NCBI GenBank assembly: GCA_963727445.1
Contig: CAVSGI010000018.1
Location: 18,086-82,085, forward strand
Origin: an uncultured delta proteobacterium
Lineage (GTDB): Bacteria > Myxococcota_A > Polyangia > Polyangiales > B10-G4
Direction of reading: 5' to 3'
DNA length: 64,000 nt
Shown: piece after piece, positions 42,001-48,000 of the stretch
Layout: each line of letters starts with the position of its first letter
Position numbering within the stretch: position 1 is the first letter of the stretch
Program-made: the position numbers

Positions 42001-45000
42001 GCGCCCGACCCCGAGCGCCTCGCTGTGGCGCGCGCCGGGACCAGCCGCCTGACCGAGGCGCTCGGCACGCTCCCCGAAAATCAGCGGACGGCCATCGTCC
42101 TGTTCCACTTTCACGAGGCGACCTACGAGGAGATCGCCGCTACCCTCGACGTGCCGATGGGAACCGTCATGACCTGGCTGCACCGCGCGCGGAAGAAGCT
42201 GCGCGCCGCCATGGAGGCGGACGCATGAGCGCGCACCTCGACGAGGTCGCCCTCGAGGCGCTCGCCCACGGCCGCAACGACCTCGTGCCCGACGAGGAGC
42301 GCCTGCACGTCGCCGGCTGCGCCGAGTGCGGCGCAGCCATCGAGGAGATCCGCCGCGTGTCGAAGGACCTCTCCTTCGCCCTCGCCGCCGAAGCGCCCGA
42401 GCTCCCCGACCTCGACGCGATCATCGCGGGCGCCCTCGAGAAGGCGCCCGATCCCGCCTACGCCCGGCCGCCGCTGGCGGTGCTCGCCGGCGCCGGCCTC
42501 GCCGGTCTGGTGGCGGCGGCGGTCCTCGGGTTGCTCGCGCTTCCGAGCGCCACCTCGGTGGTGAGCTTCGTTCACGATGCGATCGCCGTCGTCGGCGGCG
42601 TCGACCGCGTGGTCACCGCCTTCGTGCCGGGAGGCTGGAGCCTCATCGCGCTCACCGGCTTCTTCGTGCTGGCGATCCTCGCCGTGCCCTTCAGTCGCCT
42701 GCTGCGCCCGGCCGCCGCCGGCGCCGCGAGCTCCTCGGTCTTCAGCGTGCTCGGGTTGGTCCTGGTGGTGGGCTCCTCGCTCTTCTTCGCGCCGAATGGC
42801 GCCTTCGCGCTCAGCTTCGAGGGCGAGTGGCCTTCGCCCGACGAAGGGCATCTGGTGTCGCTCTCGATCGACGATCAGCCGCTCAACGACGCGCTCCGAG
42901 ACGCGGCCTCGGCCGCGGGCCTCGGCTACGTCTCCCAACTCGCCGCTTCCGAGCGGCGCGTGAGCCTCGAGGTGCAGGACGCCGAGCTGCGCGTGGTGAT
43001 CGAGACGCTCCTCGGTGACGCGCGGGTGATCGCGCGGCGCACGCCGACGGCGCTGGTGCTCGTCCCGGACGCGTCCGAGCCCGAGGGCGCCGGTGACGAC
43101 GAGGTGGACGAAGAAGCGCTGCCGACCAAGCAGCAGCCCCAGCATCCGGCGCTCACCGTACCGGTCGTCCCGGAGGTGCCGCCGGTCCCCGGTGTGCCCG
43201 CGGCCCCCGCTGCGCCGCCCCTTCCCCCCGACGTGGATCTCGCGCACCTGCCGGATCGCGAGACCTTCGGCGGAGACGTGCACATCCGGCCGGGCGAGGT
43301 GGTGCGTCACGTCACCTCCACCGGCGGCGACGTCGAGGTCGAGGGCACCGTCTACGGCAACGTCACCAGCATGGGCGGCGACATCGAGGTGCGGGACGGC
43401 GGCGTGGTCCACGGCGAGCTGGTGAGCATGGGCGGCGACGTCGAGATTCGTTCCGGCGGCGCGGCCTACGGTCAGATGGTCACCATGGGCGGTGAGGTCG
43501 ACATCGAGGAGGGCGCGATCGTGACCGGCGCGCGCGTCACGATGGATCCGCCCGACGCCCCGGCGGCGATCGAGGCCGAGGCTGGGAGCGAGCACGGCGG
43601 ATTCGGCGCCTGGGTGAAGGAGTCGGTCGAGTCGGCGGCCCGACACGCGATCCTCTTCGTCCTCGGCATCTTCCTCCTCGCACTGGCGCCGGATCGCCTC
43701 GGCGCCCTCAGGCGCACCATCGCGCGCGCGCCGCTGCGCACCGCCGCCACCGGCCTGATGGGCATCGTGGGAACGGTGGTGCTCACGGTGATCCTCGCCA
43801 TCACCCTGATCGGCATCCCCGCCGCCATCGTCCTCGCCATCGTCGCCTTCCTCGGCGCTTACGTGGGTCTGGTCGCTTGTGCGTCGGTGCTGGGTGCGGC
43901 GCTGCCGACGGCCCGCCTGAAGGATCGCCCGATCCTGCAGCTGGGCGCGGGTGTGGCGGTGCTCTTCGTCGTGTCGCTGGTGCCCGGGATCGGCGGCCTT
44001 CTCACGGTGATCGCCGCGCTCGTCGGCTATGGCGCCGTGATCCTGACGCGGTTCAGGGCAGTGGCGTACGGCGACTGACGCTCAGGGATCCAACAGCGTC
44101 CGGAGCAGCTTCCAGTCCCGCATCTGGTCGGCCCATGGCCTCTGGATCGTCGCGCGCGCGCCCGGGTGATAGAGCGGCAGCACGAAGCGATGGTTCCAGC
44201 GGTGCACCTCTCCCACGTCCCACTTCAAGGTGAGTGTGTGCGGGGCGATCACCGCGAGCGACATCAGCGCCGTGGCGCCGAGGGTCACGATGATCGCCGG
44301 GTCGAGGGCGTCGATCAGCGATTGTACGAAATGGGTGCAGCGCTTCACTTCGGCCTTGCTCGGCTTGCGGCCCTCGCCGGCCTCCGTCTTCGGGCTGCAG
44401 AGCACCGCGTTGGTGATGAAGAGCTCGTCGCGCGAGAGGCGCGCGGCGGAGAGCAGCTTCTCGAAGGCGTCGCCGGTGCGGTCGCCCTTGAGCGGCACGC
44501 CGGTGGACGCGGCTCCGTGAAAGCCCGGCGCCTCGGCAATCACCAGACAGCGCGCGCTCTCGTCGCCGTTCGCTTCGGAAAGGACCCGCGGTCGGCCGTG
44601 CATCGTCGTGCAGCGCGTGCACGACTGGGCATCGGCGATGATGGTCGCGAGGCTGCTCCTCGCGCTACTCGTGGCCGCGCTCGTCCCTCCCATGGGCGAA
44701 GAAGGGTGCGCGGAGCCGGGCGGGAGCGCAACGTACTTTCTGTACTCGTTCGTACTGCCGAAAAGAGCTGCTAGGCTGCACCCGTGGCCGACCGACCCGA
44801 TCCACTCTCCGGCGACGAGCGCGACGCGCTGATGGGGCAGGCGCGCCCGCGCACGGGCCTCCCCATCGCGCCTCATGCCCCCCCCGCGCGACGTCATCTT
44901 CCTCTCGCTGCCGAGGCCCGCGACATCGATCGGCGCTATCGCCCGATCTACGCGGTCTGGGAGATCACCCTCGCGTGTGACCTGGCCTGCCGACATTGCG

Positions 45001-48000
45001 GCTCGCGCGCCGGCCACGCGCGTCCCGACGAGCTCAGCACCGAGGAGTGCCTGGACCTGGTCCGTCAGATGGCGGAGATGGGCGTCAAGGAGGTCAGCCT
45101 GATCGGCGGCGAGGCGTATCTGCGCGACGATTGGGTGGACATCATCCGCGCCGTGAAGGCGCACGGCATGACGCCGCTCATCACCTCCGGTGGACGCGGC
45201 TTCACCGAGGAGCGGGCCCGCGCCGGCGCCGAAGCGGGTCTCGCCAGCGTCAGCATCTCCATCGACGGAAACGAAGCGACCCACGACCGGCTACGCGGCG
45301 TGAAGGGAAGTCACGCGGCAGCCCTCGCCGCGCTGAAGAACCTCCGCGCCGCGGGCGTTCGCGTCTCCACCAACACGCAGATCAACCGCCTCAGCATGCC
45401 GGAGCTCGAGGACGTCCTCGACACGATCATCGAAAACGGCGGTCACAGCTGGCAGATCCAGCTCACCGTCGCGATGGGTCGCGCGGCCGACGAGCCCGAG
45501 GTCCTGCTCCAGCCCTACGACCTGCTCGAGCTCTTCCCGCTCCTCGCGGAGCTGAAGAAGAAGTGCGACGAAAACGGCGTGCGCCTGTGGCCGGGGAACA
45601 ACATCGGCTACTTCGGCCCTTACGAATCCGTGCTGAAGGGCACCATGCCCCGCGGCCACATGGCCTCCTGCGGTGCCGGGCGCGGCACTCTGGGCATCGA
45701 GGCCGACGGGACCATCAAAGGCTGCCCATCACTGACCACCACGCCCTGGGGCGGCGGGAACATCCGCGACAATTCCCTGCAGGACATCTGGGAGCGGGCC
45801 GAGCCCCTGCGCTACACCCGCGATCGCACGGTGGAGGACCTCTGGGGCTTCTGCCGCGACTGCTATTACGCAGACGAGTGTCGCGCCGGCTGCACCTGGA
45901 CCAGCCAGGTGCTCTTCGGCAAGCCGGGCAACAACCCCTACTGCCATCACCGCGCCCTCGAGCGGCAGCGCGAAGGCAAGCGCGAGCGCATCGAGCGCGT
46001 ACAGGAAGCGCCAGGGTTGCCCTTTGATCATGGAGAGTTTCGTCTCATACTCGAAGACGACCCGGCGGCCTCGAAGGCCGGCGGAGGAGGTTGAAAGACT
46101 CATGGCCCGCTTGCTCCCTTGTCCTGGCTGCGAACGTCACGTGCGCATCACCGAAGCGCTCTGTCCCTTCTGCGGCGACGCCCTGCCGATGAGCTATCAG
46201 AGCGCCGGCCCGGCGCCGCTGCCCAGAGCGCGCCTCGGTCGCGCCGCGAAGTTCGCCTTCGGCGCGGCGGTCGCAGGCGCGCTCGCGGTGACCGGTTGTG
46301 GAGACGACGGCACCGCGGGCGACACCGGCGTCGTCGACACCGGCACCCTCGACTCCGGCGGCGCCCTCTACGGCGGAGCCCCTGACGTCGGCCCCGCGGA
46401 CACGAGCGCGGGCGACGACGAGCGCGGGCGACGGCAGCGCGGGCGACGGCAGCGCGGGCGACGGCAGCGCGGGTGACGCGTCCACCGACTCCGGCTCGAT
46501 GGCCCTCTACGGCGGTCCGCCTGTGGACTCCGGGGCGGCGGATGGCTCCTCGGGCGGCGACAGCGGCCCGGCCCCACTCTACGGCGCGCCGCCGTCGGCC
46601 TGAGCCTTCGCTCCGAAGCGGGCGCCCACGCCCAGGTGCAATCCCCAGATCCCGCCGTCGTTGAAAGCGAAGCCGGCGGGATCGTCGATGTTCATCGTGA
46701 AGGCGGCTCCGAAGAAGAGGGTGTCGAGCCACACCCGCCCGAAGACCTCGAGCGCCGTCTGAACCGGATCCGTCGTGGCGAAGAGCCCGCCCGTCGGGAG
46801 CCAGGCGAGGTCGAAGGCGATGCCCAGGGTGAGCAGCTCGGGCAAGACCCAGGCCGCGCCCACGCGGCCGTCCACGAAGAGATCCACGTTCGTGCCCTCG
46901 TCGCCCACCGGGATCATCGGCGCGATGGATGCCTCGACGAACGCGTCCACCGCCTGCGCGAAGCGGTGGCTCGCGCCTCCGCTCACGATGATGGAGAGGC
47001 GCTCGGGCGCCCAGAGCCAGAGCTTGGTGCCGCCATAGGTCGCCGCCGAGGTGTTGAACGCCTTGCGCATCGTGTCCTGCTCGACGTCCGGGACGTCGTT
47101 CGGGACCCAGGCCGTGGGGACCGCGACGCCCAAACCGATCACGCCGGAGGTCGCGGCCGCGCGGAAGCGGTGATGGGCGCCGGCGGTGACGTTGCCGAAG
47201 CGCAAGACGGCCCCGCCGGGATCCGAAGGGGTCGTCGTCTCGACGTAGCTCAGGGGCATCTCGAAGTGCGCGCCCCAGTCGCGGACGAAATCGTAGTGTC
47301 CGCGCACCAACGGTGAGACGCTGACGAGCTTGCCGCCTTCGGGGTGACCGACGAAGGTCGAGGTCCACAGGCTCATCTCGCCGCGGCTATCCCACAGGGG
47401 CTGACTCGGTGGCCCGTTGTCGCGATAGTTGACCGGGCCCTGGCGCTCGTTGAAGGCCTGCGCGCCCGCGACCCTCGGCAGACCGGCCGACAGGATCAGG
47501 ACGAAGGCGATGAAGGCCGCGGGCCGCACTGGCCCGCCTGTAGCATCAGCCGACGATCTCGGCGAACCGCGGGTGGGCGCAGAGCTCCTCGAAGTCTCCG
47601 TCCTCCCAAGCGGCGACGGCCCAGGCGCGATCCAGGTAGACCGCCCGGCGGAGCGCGTCGAGGGCCCCGTCGCTGTCGCCGATCCGCGCCCGGGTGCAGG
47701 CGAGATTGTAGAAGGTCAGGGCCGAGGTGGGGTCGATCTCCGTGGCCCGCGAGAAGGCGCCGGCGGCGGCCTCGAGGCTCCCCATCGCGGCGAGCGCGAA
47801 GCCCGTGTGCATGTAGAGCTCGAAGCTCTCGACGCCCCGCTGGATCAGCTCGTCGGCGGTCGTGACGGCGCCGTCGTAGTCGCCGAGGTTTCTCACCTGG
47901 ACCCGCAACAGGCCCAGGGAGGCGGGCACGTGGCCGGTGCCGAAGCGGGCGTCCGAGTAGGCCATGGCCGCGCCGGCGAAGTCGCGCTCGGCTTCGAGGG

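Follow-up and report, generated by a model that had tools for sequence, protein, structure and literature searches.

The window, a stretch of 64,000 nucleotides from the genome of an uncultured delta proteobacterium of the Myxococcota_A, contains a two-gene locus in which a gene for a radical SAM/SPASM enzyme is followed, 7 nt past its stop codon, by a gene for a zinc-ribbon protein that appears to be its precursor substrate (Table 1). Flanking it are a gene for a uracil-DNA glycosylase and a convergently oriented ORF that matches no family. The placement of a Shine-Dalgarno-like element inside the end of the enzyme gene suggests, as far as sequence can indicate, that the precursor is translationally coupled to it. 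Neither a separate Y protein nor a precursor with a Nif11/NHLP leader occurs at the locus, and the precursor itself matches no such family.

Table 1. Features of the splicease-type locus (window positions) and unlinked precursor genes of the same genome (contig positions)
Feature	Position	Strand	Remarks
Radical SAM/SPASM enzyme, splicease clade	44784..46094	+	436 aa, GTG start; Pfam Radical_SAM and SPASM
CxxxCxxC for radical SAM [4Fe-4S] cluster	44976..44999	+	C65, C69, C72; sequence
Predicted docking patch, enzyme residues 277-283	45612..45632	+	plus residues 290, 292, 361-362, 364-365; complex prediction
Shine-Dalgarno-like GGAGGAGG	46083..46090	+	in last codons of enzyme gene; seen in sequence
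Precursor gene	46102..46603	+	~166 aa with read-through; frame 1 of the assembly gives 124 aa
Zinc ribbon	46120..46173	+	C7-x2-C10-E-R-H-x7-C21-P-F-C24 (CxxC-x10-CPFC)
Internal lipoprotein-type signal	46231..46299	+	R-L-x-R, uncharged helix 47-64, V-T-G-C lipobox; Cys66 at 46297-46299
Site 1, Leu-Tyr-Gly	46366..46374	+	in frame; sequence
15-nt tandem repeat, 4.9 copies	46405..46478	+	S-A-G-D-G spacer; one-base frameshift at its start
Site 2, Leu-Tyr-Gly	46505..46513	+	past frameshift; sequence
Site 3, Leu-Tyr-Gly as P-L-Y-G-x-P	46577..46585	+	past frameshift; sequence
Six lone precursors	C1:51379, C2:4857, C6:~579170	-	
	C10:391608, C10:812144, C21:465063	+	

Profile searches with the enzyme recovered TIGR04103 as the best NCBIfam match (506.5 bits against a cut-off of 725) and TIGR03913 as the next (500.4 bits against 591.75), neither cut-off being reached, with the third-ranked family at 155.8 bits. 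TIGR03913 was aligned only over profile positions 14-389 of 477, leaving its C-terminal ribbon region uncovered; the window enzyme has no zinc ribbon in its own sequence, which explains part of the shortfall in this score. The cysteine motif of the radical SAM cluster is unchanged across 112 aligned homologues. The enzyme is 54% identical to a TIGR04103-annotated protein of Nostoc, which serves here as a stand-in for the family rather than as PlpX or RhaX and whose locus contains a Nif11 precursor and a small downstream ORF, and 48-57% identical to the GDL-type enzymes. In a quick tree the window enzyme, the Nostoc protein and the GDL clade fall together in a 29-row group (SH-aLRT 94) nested in a 40-row group (SH-aLRT 97), apart from other radical SAM proteins of the same genome, used as outgroups (25-33% identical). 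Sequence and fold searches of the PDB recovered no splicease structure, the best hit being SkfB at 23% identity. The earlier note had proposed a PlpX-type enzyme here and a second one on another contig, C20, both scoring 410-506 bits and below both cut-offs; both enzymes are confirmed, the C20 enzyme being 50.6% identical to that of the window over 397 aa and scoring 409.3 bits on TIGR03913. Taken together, the myxobacterial enzyme is most likely a variant of known splicease chemistry.

The window precursor was described in the same note as a zinc ribbon, a hydrophobic segment with a lipobox Cys and an acidic tail with repeated sites. The ribbon, the segment (a helix, according to structure prediction, with a basic stretch in front of it), the Cys and the acidic tail behind it are all present, but only one of the three LYG sites lies in frame as assembled. 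Frame 1 continues into an Arg-rich read-through, and the other two sites, together with the stop at 46603, are in a different frame. The context of site 3 matches a splice tag derived from PlpA2 (PMC10533398).

The architecture of the family was quantified in 140 of 150 homologues selected by an N-terminal profile alone. In their tails, which have a Gly content of 23%, 296 of 327 Tyr residues are followed by Gly, while upstream of the Cys this is true of only 2 of 20. At least one YG is present in 124 of the 140 proteins; five of the remaining 16 have Y-A or Y-S instead. Pro precedes the site at position -2 in 153 of the 296 cases, of which 110 fit P-x-Y-G-x-P and 25 PLYGxP; characterised splice sites include PLYGLP, AMYGV, AMYGA and PMYGV (PMC10533398; PMC11414181, accessible supplement). 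A DYG site in RcsA is reported as unmodified in the accessible text of PMC11626197, so not all YG sites are necessarily modified. The residue at -1 to the Cys is A, G or S throughout (140/140), and that at -2 in 74; the lipobox fits a relaxed form in 128 and a strict form in 66. The hydrophobic segment comprises 13-20 residues devoid of K or R, with D and E also absent in 137 of 140, and Gly or Ser directly follows the Cys in 118. Counted from the N-terminus, the Cys is residue 59-127 (median 64) and follows a folded domain, so that the signal is not N-terminal. Genes for Lgt and LspA were found in the genome, as in most bacteria.

A genome-wide search recovered eight precursors for the two splicease-type enzymes. 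The C20 precursor adjoins its enzyme as noted earlier, but without the repeated XYG(A/G)P sites ascribed to it: its sole YG immediately follows the lipobox Cys (L-S-A-C-Y-G), and its one other Tyr is not part of a YG. Lone precursors had been reported from C2 and C10:812144; both are confirmed, but there are six rather than two, none of which has an enzyme gene beside it. Each has 1-3 YG sites, every Tyr after the Cys being part of a YG in all six, and all six share the R-H-[V/I]-R ribbon motif of the window precursor. At 85.6% completeness, the assembly may lack an additional enzyme.

The enzyme is encoded in 108 of 301 sampled genomes of the phylum, about a third. A YG-bearing precursor lies beside it at 60 of 80 close loci; the fetched stretches of the other 20, several of which end at a contig edge, contain either no precursor (13) or one without a visible YG (7). 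Precursor matches at E<=3e-6, a threshold set after inspection of the data, occur in 59 genomes, all of them enzyme-bearing, and in none of the 193 enzyme-less ones, leaving 49 of the 108 enzyme-bearing genomes without a match; at E<=1e-4 there are 68 enzyme-bearing and 15 enzyme-less genomes with a match. Excluding the 25 source genomes of the profile gives 34 and 0 at the stricter threshold and 43 and 15 at the looser one. For these counts 20 candidates per genome were scored, and related genomes are not independent. No third gene, including any for a peptidase or exporter, recurs, the biggest flanking cluster being found at 7 of 78 loci. In a related clade the enzyme itself carries, as a fusion, a segment resembling a lipobox and a set of YG repeats but lacks a ribbon.

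The four ribbon cysteines are invariant in 143 aligned precursor rows, and the ribbon is predicted to fold with a pLDDT of 88-95. Predicted complexes of precursor and enzyme, in which the ribbon docks, scored 0.90, 0.90 and 0.72, against 0.01 for the best of three controls; the calibration set, which had neither ligands nor user-supplied alignments, places 116 of 157 solved complexes at or above the mark, along with 2 of 215 mismatched pairs. The runs agree poorly, sharing no less than 21% of their contacts at a partner pLDDT of 56 or more, and only some 30 of roughly 220 contacts can be called confident. On the precursor side these involve residues 4, 6, 10-13 and 22; in the enzyme patch P279 and E281 are invariant, and conservation reaches at least 90% at F277, G278, Y361 and Y362. 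When the C-terminal ribbons of GDL-type enzymes (24 sequences) alone were made into a profile and this was run against the genome in six frames (135,432 pieces), the six highest-ranked pieces were precursors (best E 8.5e-6); a seventh came at rank 11, and the eighth was not among the top 40. Individually, the precursor ribbons match TIGR03913 weakly (E 0.0003-0.05), the window copy not at all, and other zinc-ribbon families also match the precursor ribbon. All 10 GDL enzymes with a fused ribbon keep the Tyr-Tyr pair at 361-362, and none of the 6 fused enzymes that lack a ribbon has it; the enzyme from Tropicibacter lacks the pair and has a ribbon of R-H type. The idea of a recognition code draws on three enzyme-precursor pairs from one clade versus 73.

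These observations bear on several alternatives. The ribbon could be a generic zinc finger serving metal or redox sensing, cytoplasmic retention or stability, with a merely convergent likeness to the GDL ribbons and an enzyme that reads the core motif only. Ribbons are indeed frequent (the six-frame translation of this genome yields 462 such patterns) and have weak matches to many families; PlpXY splicing needs no leader; and precursors without a ribbon adjoin related enzymes (locus L166). The gap between the complex score and the best control, the conserved residues opposed across the interface, the reciprocal ranking of the GDL-ribbon profile and the way in which the Tyr-Tyr pair tracks ribbon fusion nevertheless make this reading improbable. 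Rather unlikely, too, is a window precursor that is truly frameshifted or decaying while the lone copies act as the working substrates of the enzyme, a situation that would be compatible with the main explanation. Slippage is plausible, the shift being situated in a tandem repeat, and an intact paralogue 79% identical to the window precursor exists on C1. However, the shift is probably assembly noise, since kinase domains are likewise split in the same assembly (15 of 253); the frame beyond it still has both LYG sites and the stop, and G+C makes up 92% of its third codon positions; the precursor orthologues at the equivalent locus of a genome of the same genus are intact.

The product might also be spliced without being lipidated, the helix being an uncleaved anchor or an activator akin to the RhaA leader or PlpY, which would yield a membrane protein or a cytoplasmic peptide. 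In favor of this are the depth of the Cys, about 64 residues in and behind a folded domain, the conservation of R44, R47 and A49 of the precursor (each at least 90%), which is more than a plain export signal requires, and the activation of the enzyme by a leader helix in characterised binary systems (PMC11414181, accessible text). The invariant Cys with its uniformly small -1 residue and the abrupt acidic switch after it argue otherwise, as does the fused, ribbon-less arrangement of the related clade. The helix lies outside the confident interface, although residues not listed there are uncertain rather than excluded, and the precursor profile did not match the one type I Y-like protein compared (E 2.3). 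On balance the absence of lipidation seems a minor prospect. A different chemistry at the same Tyr-Gly sites, such as cross-linking of the Tyr, cleavage of the backbone or arrest at an intermediate, would accord with the scores below both family cut-offs, with the frequent occurrence of Ala (52 of 296), Val (49) or Pro (32) as X, a position held by Met or Leu in the native sites of type I, and with the lack of any characterised member of this clade in the literature consulted. It appears very improbable against the identity to a PlpX-family protein, the nested tree position, a site context equal to that of known splice tags, the reported tolerance of spliceases for many X residues and the missing C-terminal ribbon, which accounts for part of the TIGR03913 shortfall.

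Thus, a two-gene spliceotide system with a lipoprotein product is the best explanation, with a probability of about 0.55 for its steps as a whole. Its core, namely a splicease-type enzyme, dedicated YG substrates, a lipoprotein-type signal and some service in trans, is supported as a prediction by the motif statistics, the co-occurrence, the tree and the modeled complex. In the cytoplasm the N-terminal ribbon would, quite probably, dock on enzyme residues 277-283 and 361-365, replacing the leader or helper protein of other types, and by analogy the Tyr-Gly sites would most likely be converted to keto-amide groups before export. The helix behind the ribbon is then likely to act as an internal signal, the ribbon being kept inside the cell, with host Lgt and LspA lipidating Cys66 and removing ribbon and helix, so that the handle is discarded. 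The product would be a flexible lipid-anchored stalk bearing keto-amide groups; its probable destination is the outer membrane, given the Gly or Ser that follows the Cys in most homologues. The keto-amides would most likely block serine or cysteine proteases, which is the weakest step of the scheme. Given the shared R-H-[V/I]-R motif, the window enzyme is also a good candidate for serving the six lone precursors, with the C20 enzyme serving its own, divergent C-Y-G precursor; the assembly has only these two enzymes, neither adjoining a lone precursor. More tentatively, and as a joint proposal that we regard as doubtful, the ribbon could be a portable module for splicease recognition and activation, unrelated to the usual RiPP recognition element; it would be carried by the enzyme in GDL-type systems and by the substrate in Myxococcota, where its attachment to a lipoprotein signal would let signal peptidase II remove it. 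One enzyme might thereby edit up to seven envelope lipoproteins into a multivalent keto-amide "protease armour", while an orthogonal C20-type enzyme acting at C-Y-G might turn the lipidated Cys into an alpha-keto-beta-cysteine warhead, for which, when lipid-linked, no precedent was found in the literature consulted.

Spliceases are already in use for protein labelling, and if the system works as inferred its 25-residue ribbon would be a compact handle with which to steer a splicease onto any tagged protein. The lipoprotein-RiPP hybrids described of late would also be widened from iron enzymes to radical SAM chemistry. The native end products of spliceotide pathways are described as still elusive in the accessible text of a review (PMC9811515); on the same condition, one class of them would prove to be membrane lipoproteins, which could guide their search. 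The docking residues and the set of paralogues make these predictions cheap to test.

A survey by Scott et al. (2022), as cited in other papers, lists 3418 splicease candidates from 189 genera, with 939 predicted and 27 tested systems, and the accessible supplement of PMC11414181 names spliceotide types I, II, III and V. An enzyme 74% identical to that of the window is found in the cultured myxobacterium Sandaracinus amylolyticus, so this clade may well already be included in that survey. The type I systems (PlpX/PlpY/PlpA, and PcpXYA of Pleurocapsa; TIGR04103, IPR026482), as described in the accessible text of PMC11414181, PMC11002830 and PMC9811515, share the enzyme clade, the X-Tyr-Gly motif in equal context and multiple sites per precursor. 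Unlike them, the window system lacks a Y gene and a Nif11/NHLP leader, its precursor joining a zinc ribbon to a lipoprotein-type signal and a disordered, acidic tail; its enzyme stays below the TIGR04103 cut-off, and no peptidase or exporter recurs nearby. The type II systems of Rheinheimera (RhaX/RhaA, RcsX/RcsA and RasX/RasA; accessible text of PMC11414181 and PMC11626197) are likewise built of two components with no helper protein, the activating element riding on the precursor, a likeness of organization rather than of aligned sequences. That element is a PlpY-like leader helix and the products are small released peptides, whereas here a zinc-ribbon contact is predicted and the product is probably membrane-anchored. 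A precedent for a modified lipoprotein is given by the DAG-RiPPs DybA/DybH and NedA/NedBC (accessible text of PMC13056109), in which cytoplasmic modification is followed by the general lipoprotein pathway at an invariant lipobox Cys, and a hydrophobic stretch with such a lipobox and Cys is present in the precursor family. These systems use MNIO (DUF692) iron enzymes rather than a radical SAM/SPASM enzyme, and the words "radical" and "splice" are absent from the accessible main text; their signals are canonical and N-terminal, whereas those predicted here are internal and behind the ribbon, with typical basic and hydrophobic regions. The enzymes of the GDL/DUF1843 family (TIGR03913; for example in Azospirillum, Caulobacter and Aureibacter) have a core 48-57% identical to the window enzyme and are sister to a myxobacterial clade in the quick tree. 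Splicing by this family finds no mention in the literature consulted. The substrates in this family, short DUF1843 peptides, have neither ribbon nor lipobox, and PF08898 (DUF1843) matches the Azospirillum control and not the window precursor. The GDL-type enzymes carry a related CxxC-x10-CPxC ribbon on their own C-terminus, whereas the myxobacterial ribbon is on the substrate.

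On the basis of sequence comparisons, the splicease-like enzyme of the window and the precursor gene next to it appear to constitute a real and widespread system that is a variant of a known chemistry, the copy of the precursor in the window being broken. The enzyme is a radical SAM/SPASM protein of 436 aa, whose top NCBIfam matches are TIGR04103 (506.5 bits against a cut-off of 725) and TIGR03913 (500.4 bits against 591.75), with the next family at 155.8 bits; this bears out the earlier note, which had named the splicease families as its best matches and placed it under both cut-offs. 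The InterPro entry IPR026482 is the one assigned to PlpX in the available text of PMC11002830. The enzyme shares 54% identity with a Nostoc protein annotated as TIGR04103, which is accompanied by a Nif11 precursor and, downstream, by a small ORF, and 48-57% with ten enzymes of the GDL type (the TIGR03913 radical SAM family). In a quick tree covering 57 rows all of these fall into one group of 29 rows (SH-aLRT 94), nested in a group of 40 (SH-aLRT 97) that includes the second enzyme of the genome, encoded on contig C20; the outgroup branches of this tree are long and its sampling is rich in Myxococcota, and we read no order or direction of evolution from it. Searches of the PDB by sequence and by fold recovered no splicease structure.

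The assembly, which is 85.6% complete, encodes two such enzymes with a mutual identity of 50.6%, its other radical SAM proteins being far more distant, and eight precursors. The earlier note had the two enzymes right but counted only four precursors, with two rather than six of them lying alone. The six lone precursors (C1:51379, C2:4857, C6:about 579170, C10:391608, C10:812144 and C21:465063) occur in unrelated neighborhoods, remote from any such enzyme, and possess 1-3 Tyr-Gly (YG) sites each, with every Tyr after the Cys belonging to a YG. The copies on C1 and C2 and the one at C10:812144 are intact, the last of these having three sites. A search for synteny of these genes between this genome and another of the same genus (G301) found none, their flanks mapping elsewhere. 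An R-H-[V/I]-R motif typical of the window precursor is present in 6/6 lone precursors and differs in the C20 precursor, because of which the window enzyme would be their likelier partner in trans. The build that had been described as common to the precursors holds only in part, as the single YG of the C20 copy is situated directly behind the lipobox Cys (C-Y-G). This C-Y-G build is seen in four other genomes (at L153, L154, L157 twice, and L163), and overall in 6 of 135 parsed precursors. In this subtype (L001:5587-5970, L153, L154, L157 and L163) the X position of X-Tyr-Gly is occupied by the lipobox Cys.

The window precursor starts seven bases past the enzyme stop and displays, in order, a CxxC-x10-CPFC zinc ribbon, a basic stretch, a hydrophobic helix, the sequence V-T-G-C and an acidic tail. 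Its first frame yields 124 aa with one LYG, while the remaining two LYG sites and the stop lie in a different frame from the start, with a one-base shift where a 15-nt repeat (46405-46478) begins. The XYG sites previously noted in this copy are indeed encoded, but the gene carries a frameshift that the earlier note had not mentioned, and only one site is in frame. Assembly noise is the likelier cause, because 15 of the 253 well-covered Ser/Thr kinase domains of the assembly (10 partial ones among 263 kinase loci having been dropped) are split across frames, and the frame downstream of the shift shows 92% G+C at third positions. One of these 15 split kinases lies within the window, again indicating indel noise. 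The orthologous locus of G301 contains two intact precursors. Among the sequencing runs listed, none covered half of the queried stretch and none was of RNA, and the sequences from three DNA runs were contigs from other organisms that do not span the shift. Against Pfam and NCBIfam the window precursor gave no match that passed a cut-off, and its Atlas neighbors are unnamed Myxococcota clusters. A fold search with its N-terminus recovered nothing at E<=0.001, the top rows being zinc fingers of the NZF/RanBP2 type at E 0.11, which provide a lead only.

The flanks of the pair, namely a uracil-DNA glycosylase gene on one side and a convergent family-less ORF on the other, are unrelated to it. Further away, a cassette resembling imuA-imuB-dnaE2 is present, along with a sigma factor gene whose membrane-protein neighbor is probably its anti-sigma partner.

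Features of the window around the splicease system
Feature	Coordinates	Strand	Remarks
Three-gene cassette	35080-40401	-	RecA and IMS matches weak, below cut-off; complete set of DNA polymerase III alpha domains
ECF sigma factor, then 617-aa family-less membrane protein	41611-44078	+	
Uracil-DNA glycosylase superfamily gene	44082-44693	-	Divergent from splicease; not kept beside system
PlpX-like radical SAM/SPASM enzyme	44784-46094	+	
Precursor gene	46102 (start) to 46603 (stop)	+	Frameshifted
Ser/Thr kinase gene	48058-49149	-	Split over two frames
Two tandem outer-membrane-barrel-like genes	49055-51988	+	Second apparently runs through several frames

A profile of only the precursor's N-terminal portion recovered 1,391 clusters at E<=1e-10, unrelated multi-ribbon proteins among them; from the best 150 of these, 140 homologs were kept after 9 exceeding 300 aa and 1 without the pattern were dropped. 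In these homologs Tyr in the tail is followed by Gly in 296 of 327 instances, at a Gly content of 23%, as against only 2 of 20 for Tyr ahead of the Cys. At least one YG is present in 124 of the 140; of the 16 without it, Y-A or Y-S is found in five, and some of the 16 seem to be truncated. In P0170, P0207, P0225, P0226 and P0272 the Y-G is replaced by I-Y-A or I-Y-S, which might possibly define a relaxed or different target motif. Pro occupies position -2 at 153 of the 296 YG sites, and P-x-Y-G-x-P is seen at 110 of them, the same Pro-flanked context being found at characterized splice sites in the accessible portions of PMC10533398 and the PMC11414181 supplement.

The region ahead of the Cys is of the lipoprotein type: the residue just before it is Ala, Gly or Ser in all 140 homologs, as is the one a position earlier in 74/140, and it is preceded by a Lys/Arg-free run of 13-20 residues that lacks acidic residues in 137/140. 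The lipobox is strict in 66/140 and relaxed in 128/140. The Cys itself is found at residue 59-127, whereas in ordinary lipoprotein signals it occurs far earlier. The genome encodes both Lgt and LspA, with four Lgt-family loci (on C27, C12, C6 and C10) and two LspA genes (on C27 and C17). A twin-arginine export signal is not favored, with RR in 35/140 homologs versus R-L-x-R in 133/140. Across 143 rows, R44, R47 and A49, in the segment of the precursor from residue 44 to 49 (window 46231-46248), show a conservation of at least 90%, exceeding the needs of a plain export signal. A ribbon-bearing precursor with one YG, at locus L023:2684-3073, is devoid of the hydrophobic helix and lipobox Cys, and adjoins an ordinary precursor.

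Close relatives bear the labels Polyangiaceae, Sandaracinaceae or Myxococcota, which points to Myxococcota as the phylum. Across the phylum the enzyme is present in 108 of 301 genomes, and the precursor profile, with 20 candidates scored per genome, matches 83 of the 301 at E<=1e-4, of which 68 have the enzyme and 15, all with weak matches, do not. At E<=3e-6, a threshold picked after inspection of the data, all 59 matched genomes have the enzyme and 0 of the 193 enzyme-less genomes is matched, the related genomes not being independent of each other. Removal of the 25 genomes that were the source of the profile leaves 34 with and 0 without the enzyme at E<=3e-6, and 43 versus 15 at E<=1e-4. 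A YG precursor lies at most 3 kb away in 60 of 80 close loci; in 7 the precursor shows no visible YG, and 13 lack a precursor in the available stretch. Even the most widely shared third gene is present at no more than 7 of 78 loci, and a search of the flanks of these 78 for a protease or exporter dedicated to the system found none. Two apparent enzyme-ribbon fusions among the 80 close loci (L070 and L115) resemble frameshifted neighbors and were left out of the counts. A Tropicibacter plasmid enzyme (L150:2201-3823) possesses an N-terminal ribbon and helix and is nested in a myxobacterial clade in the quick tree. Enzymes of a distant clade, at L165, L167, L168, L170, L171 and L172, are fused in a single ORF to a lipobox-like segment and YG repeats with Cys-rich units; they are without a ribbon, and their predicted docking patch has diverged.

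The TIGR03913 profile is matched by 12 of 42 precursor N-termini at profile positions 426-461, a part missing from the window enzyme. GDL-type enzymes from Azospirillum and Aureibacter display a C-terminal CxxC-x10-CPHC ribbon plus helix, and a C-terminal ribbon is present in all 24 proteins found with that TIGR03913 region, by which they were selected. With a profile made from these 24 enzyme ribbons only, the top six of the 135,432 pieces from the six-frame translation are precursors of the genome, with scores of 28.3 to 13.5 bits against 12.6 for the best other piece, the seventh precursor ranking 11 and the eighth falling outside the top 40. The model of a GDL-type enzyme has a pLDDT of 90.5 (89-95 in the ribbon region) and a pTM of 0.87. 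In the available text of Richter et al. (PMC11414181), PlpY or the leader helix of RhaA is shown to activate the enzyme and to be functional when fused to its C-terminus. By analogy, a ribbon that one family has at the end of the enzyme, on its C-terminus, and another has on the substrate would fit this logic.

When the window enzyme was modeled together with residues 1-71 of the precursor, a segment free of YG sites, the predicted complex scored 0.90, 0.90 and 0.72, against 0.01 for the best of three control complexes; the mark for such scores is reached by 116/157 solved complexes and 2/215 mismatched pairs, counts that are only roughly applicable here. The runs shared at least 21% of contacts, with a partner pLDDT of at least 56. 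The confident predicted contacts link ribbon residues 4, 6, 10-13 and 22 with enzyme residues 277-283, 290, 292 and 361-365, and residues at this interface are conserved on both partners. The Tyr-Tyr pair 361-362 is found in 10/10 GDL enzymes versus 0/6 ribbon-less fused enzymes. Among the 79 enzyme-precursor pairs kept after dropping duplicates, lone-precursor loci and loci without a parsed pair, it is present in 73/73 with ribbon His13 and missing from 3 of the 6 without it, all of the C20 clade; the Tropicibacter enzyme is a counter-example to this association.

We infer a pathway that would begin in the cytoplasm, where the ribbon would dock on the enzyme and the latter would excise tyramine at XYG. 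Passage of the unfolded tail through the membrane might then be led by the internal signal, whereupon Lgt would lipidate the Cys and LspA remove the ribbon and helix, giving a lipid-anchored stalk bearing keto-amide groups. As spliceotides are described as inhibitors of serine and cysteine proteases in the accessible part of PMC11626197, the simplest role, offered as a guess by analogy, might be protection of the cell envelope from proteases.

Spliceases and their chemistry are already known, and lipoprotein-RiPP hybrids made by MNIO enzymes are described in the available text of PMC13056109. A literature search recovered no paper that deals with splicease substrates of the zinc-ribbon or lipoprotein kind in myxobacteria, and one joining zinc ribbon, precursor peptide, RiPP and radical SAM had no match; most subscription papers fall outside the scope of both, which accordingly do not show absence from print. 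The survey of Scott et al. 2022 is described by papers citing it as covering 939 predicted systems and 189 genera, and the odds that it lists this clade are about even or better, since the cultured species Sandaracinus amylolyticus has a 74%-identical enzyme. By the respective membership tests, the window system falls outside both type I and the GDL family, while in its manner of working it appears to be like the binary splicease systems.
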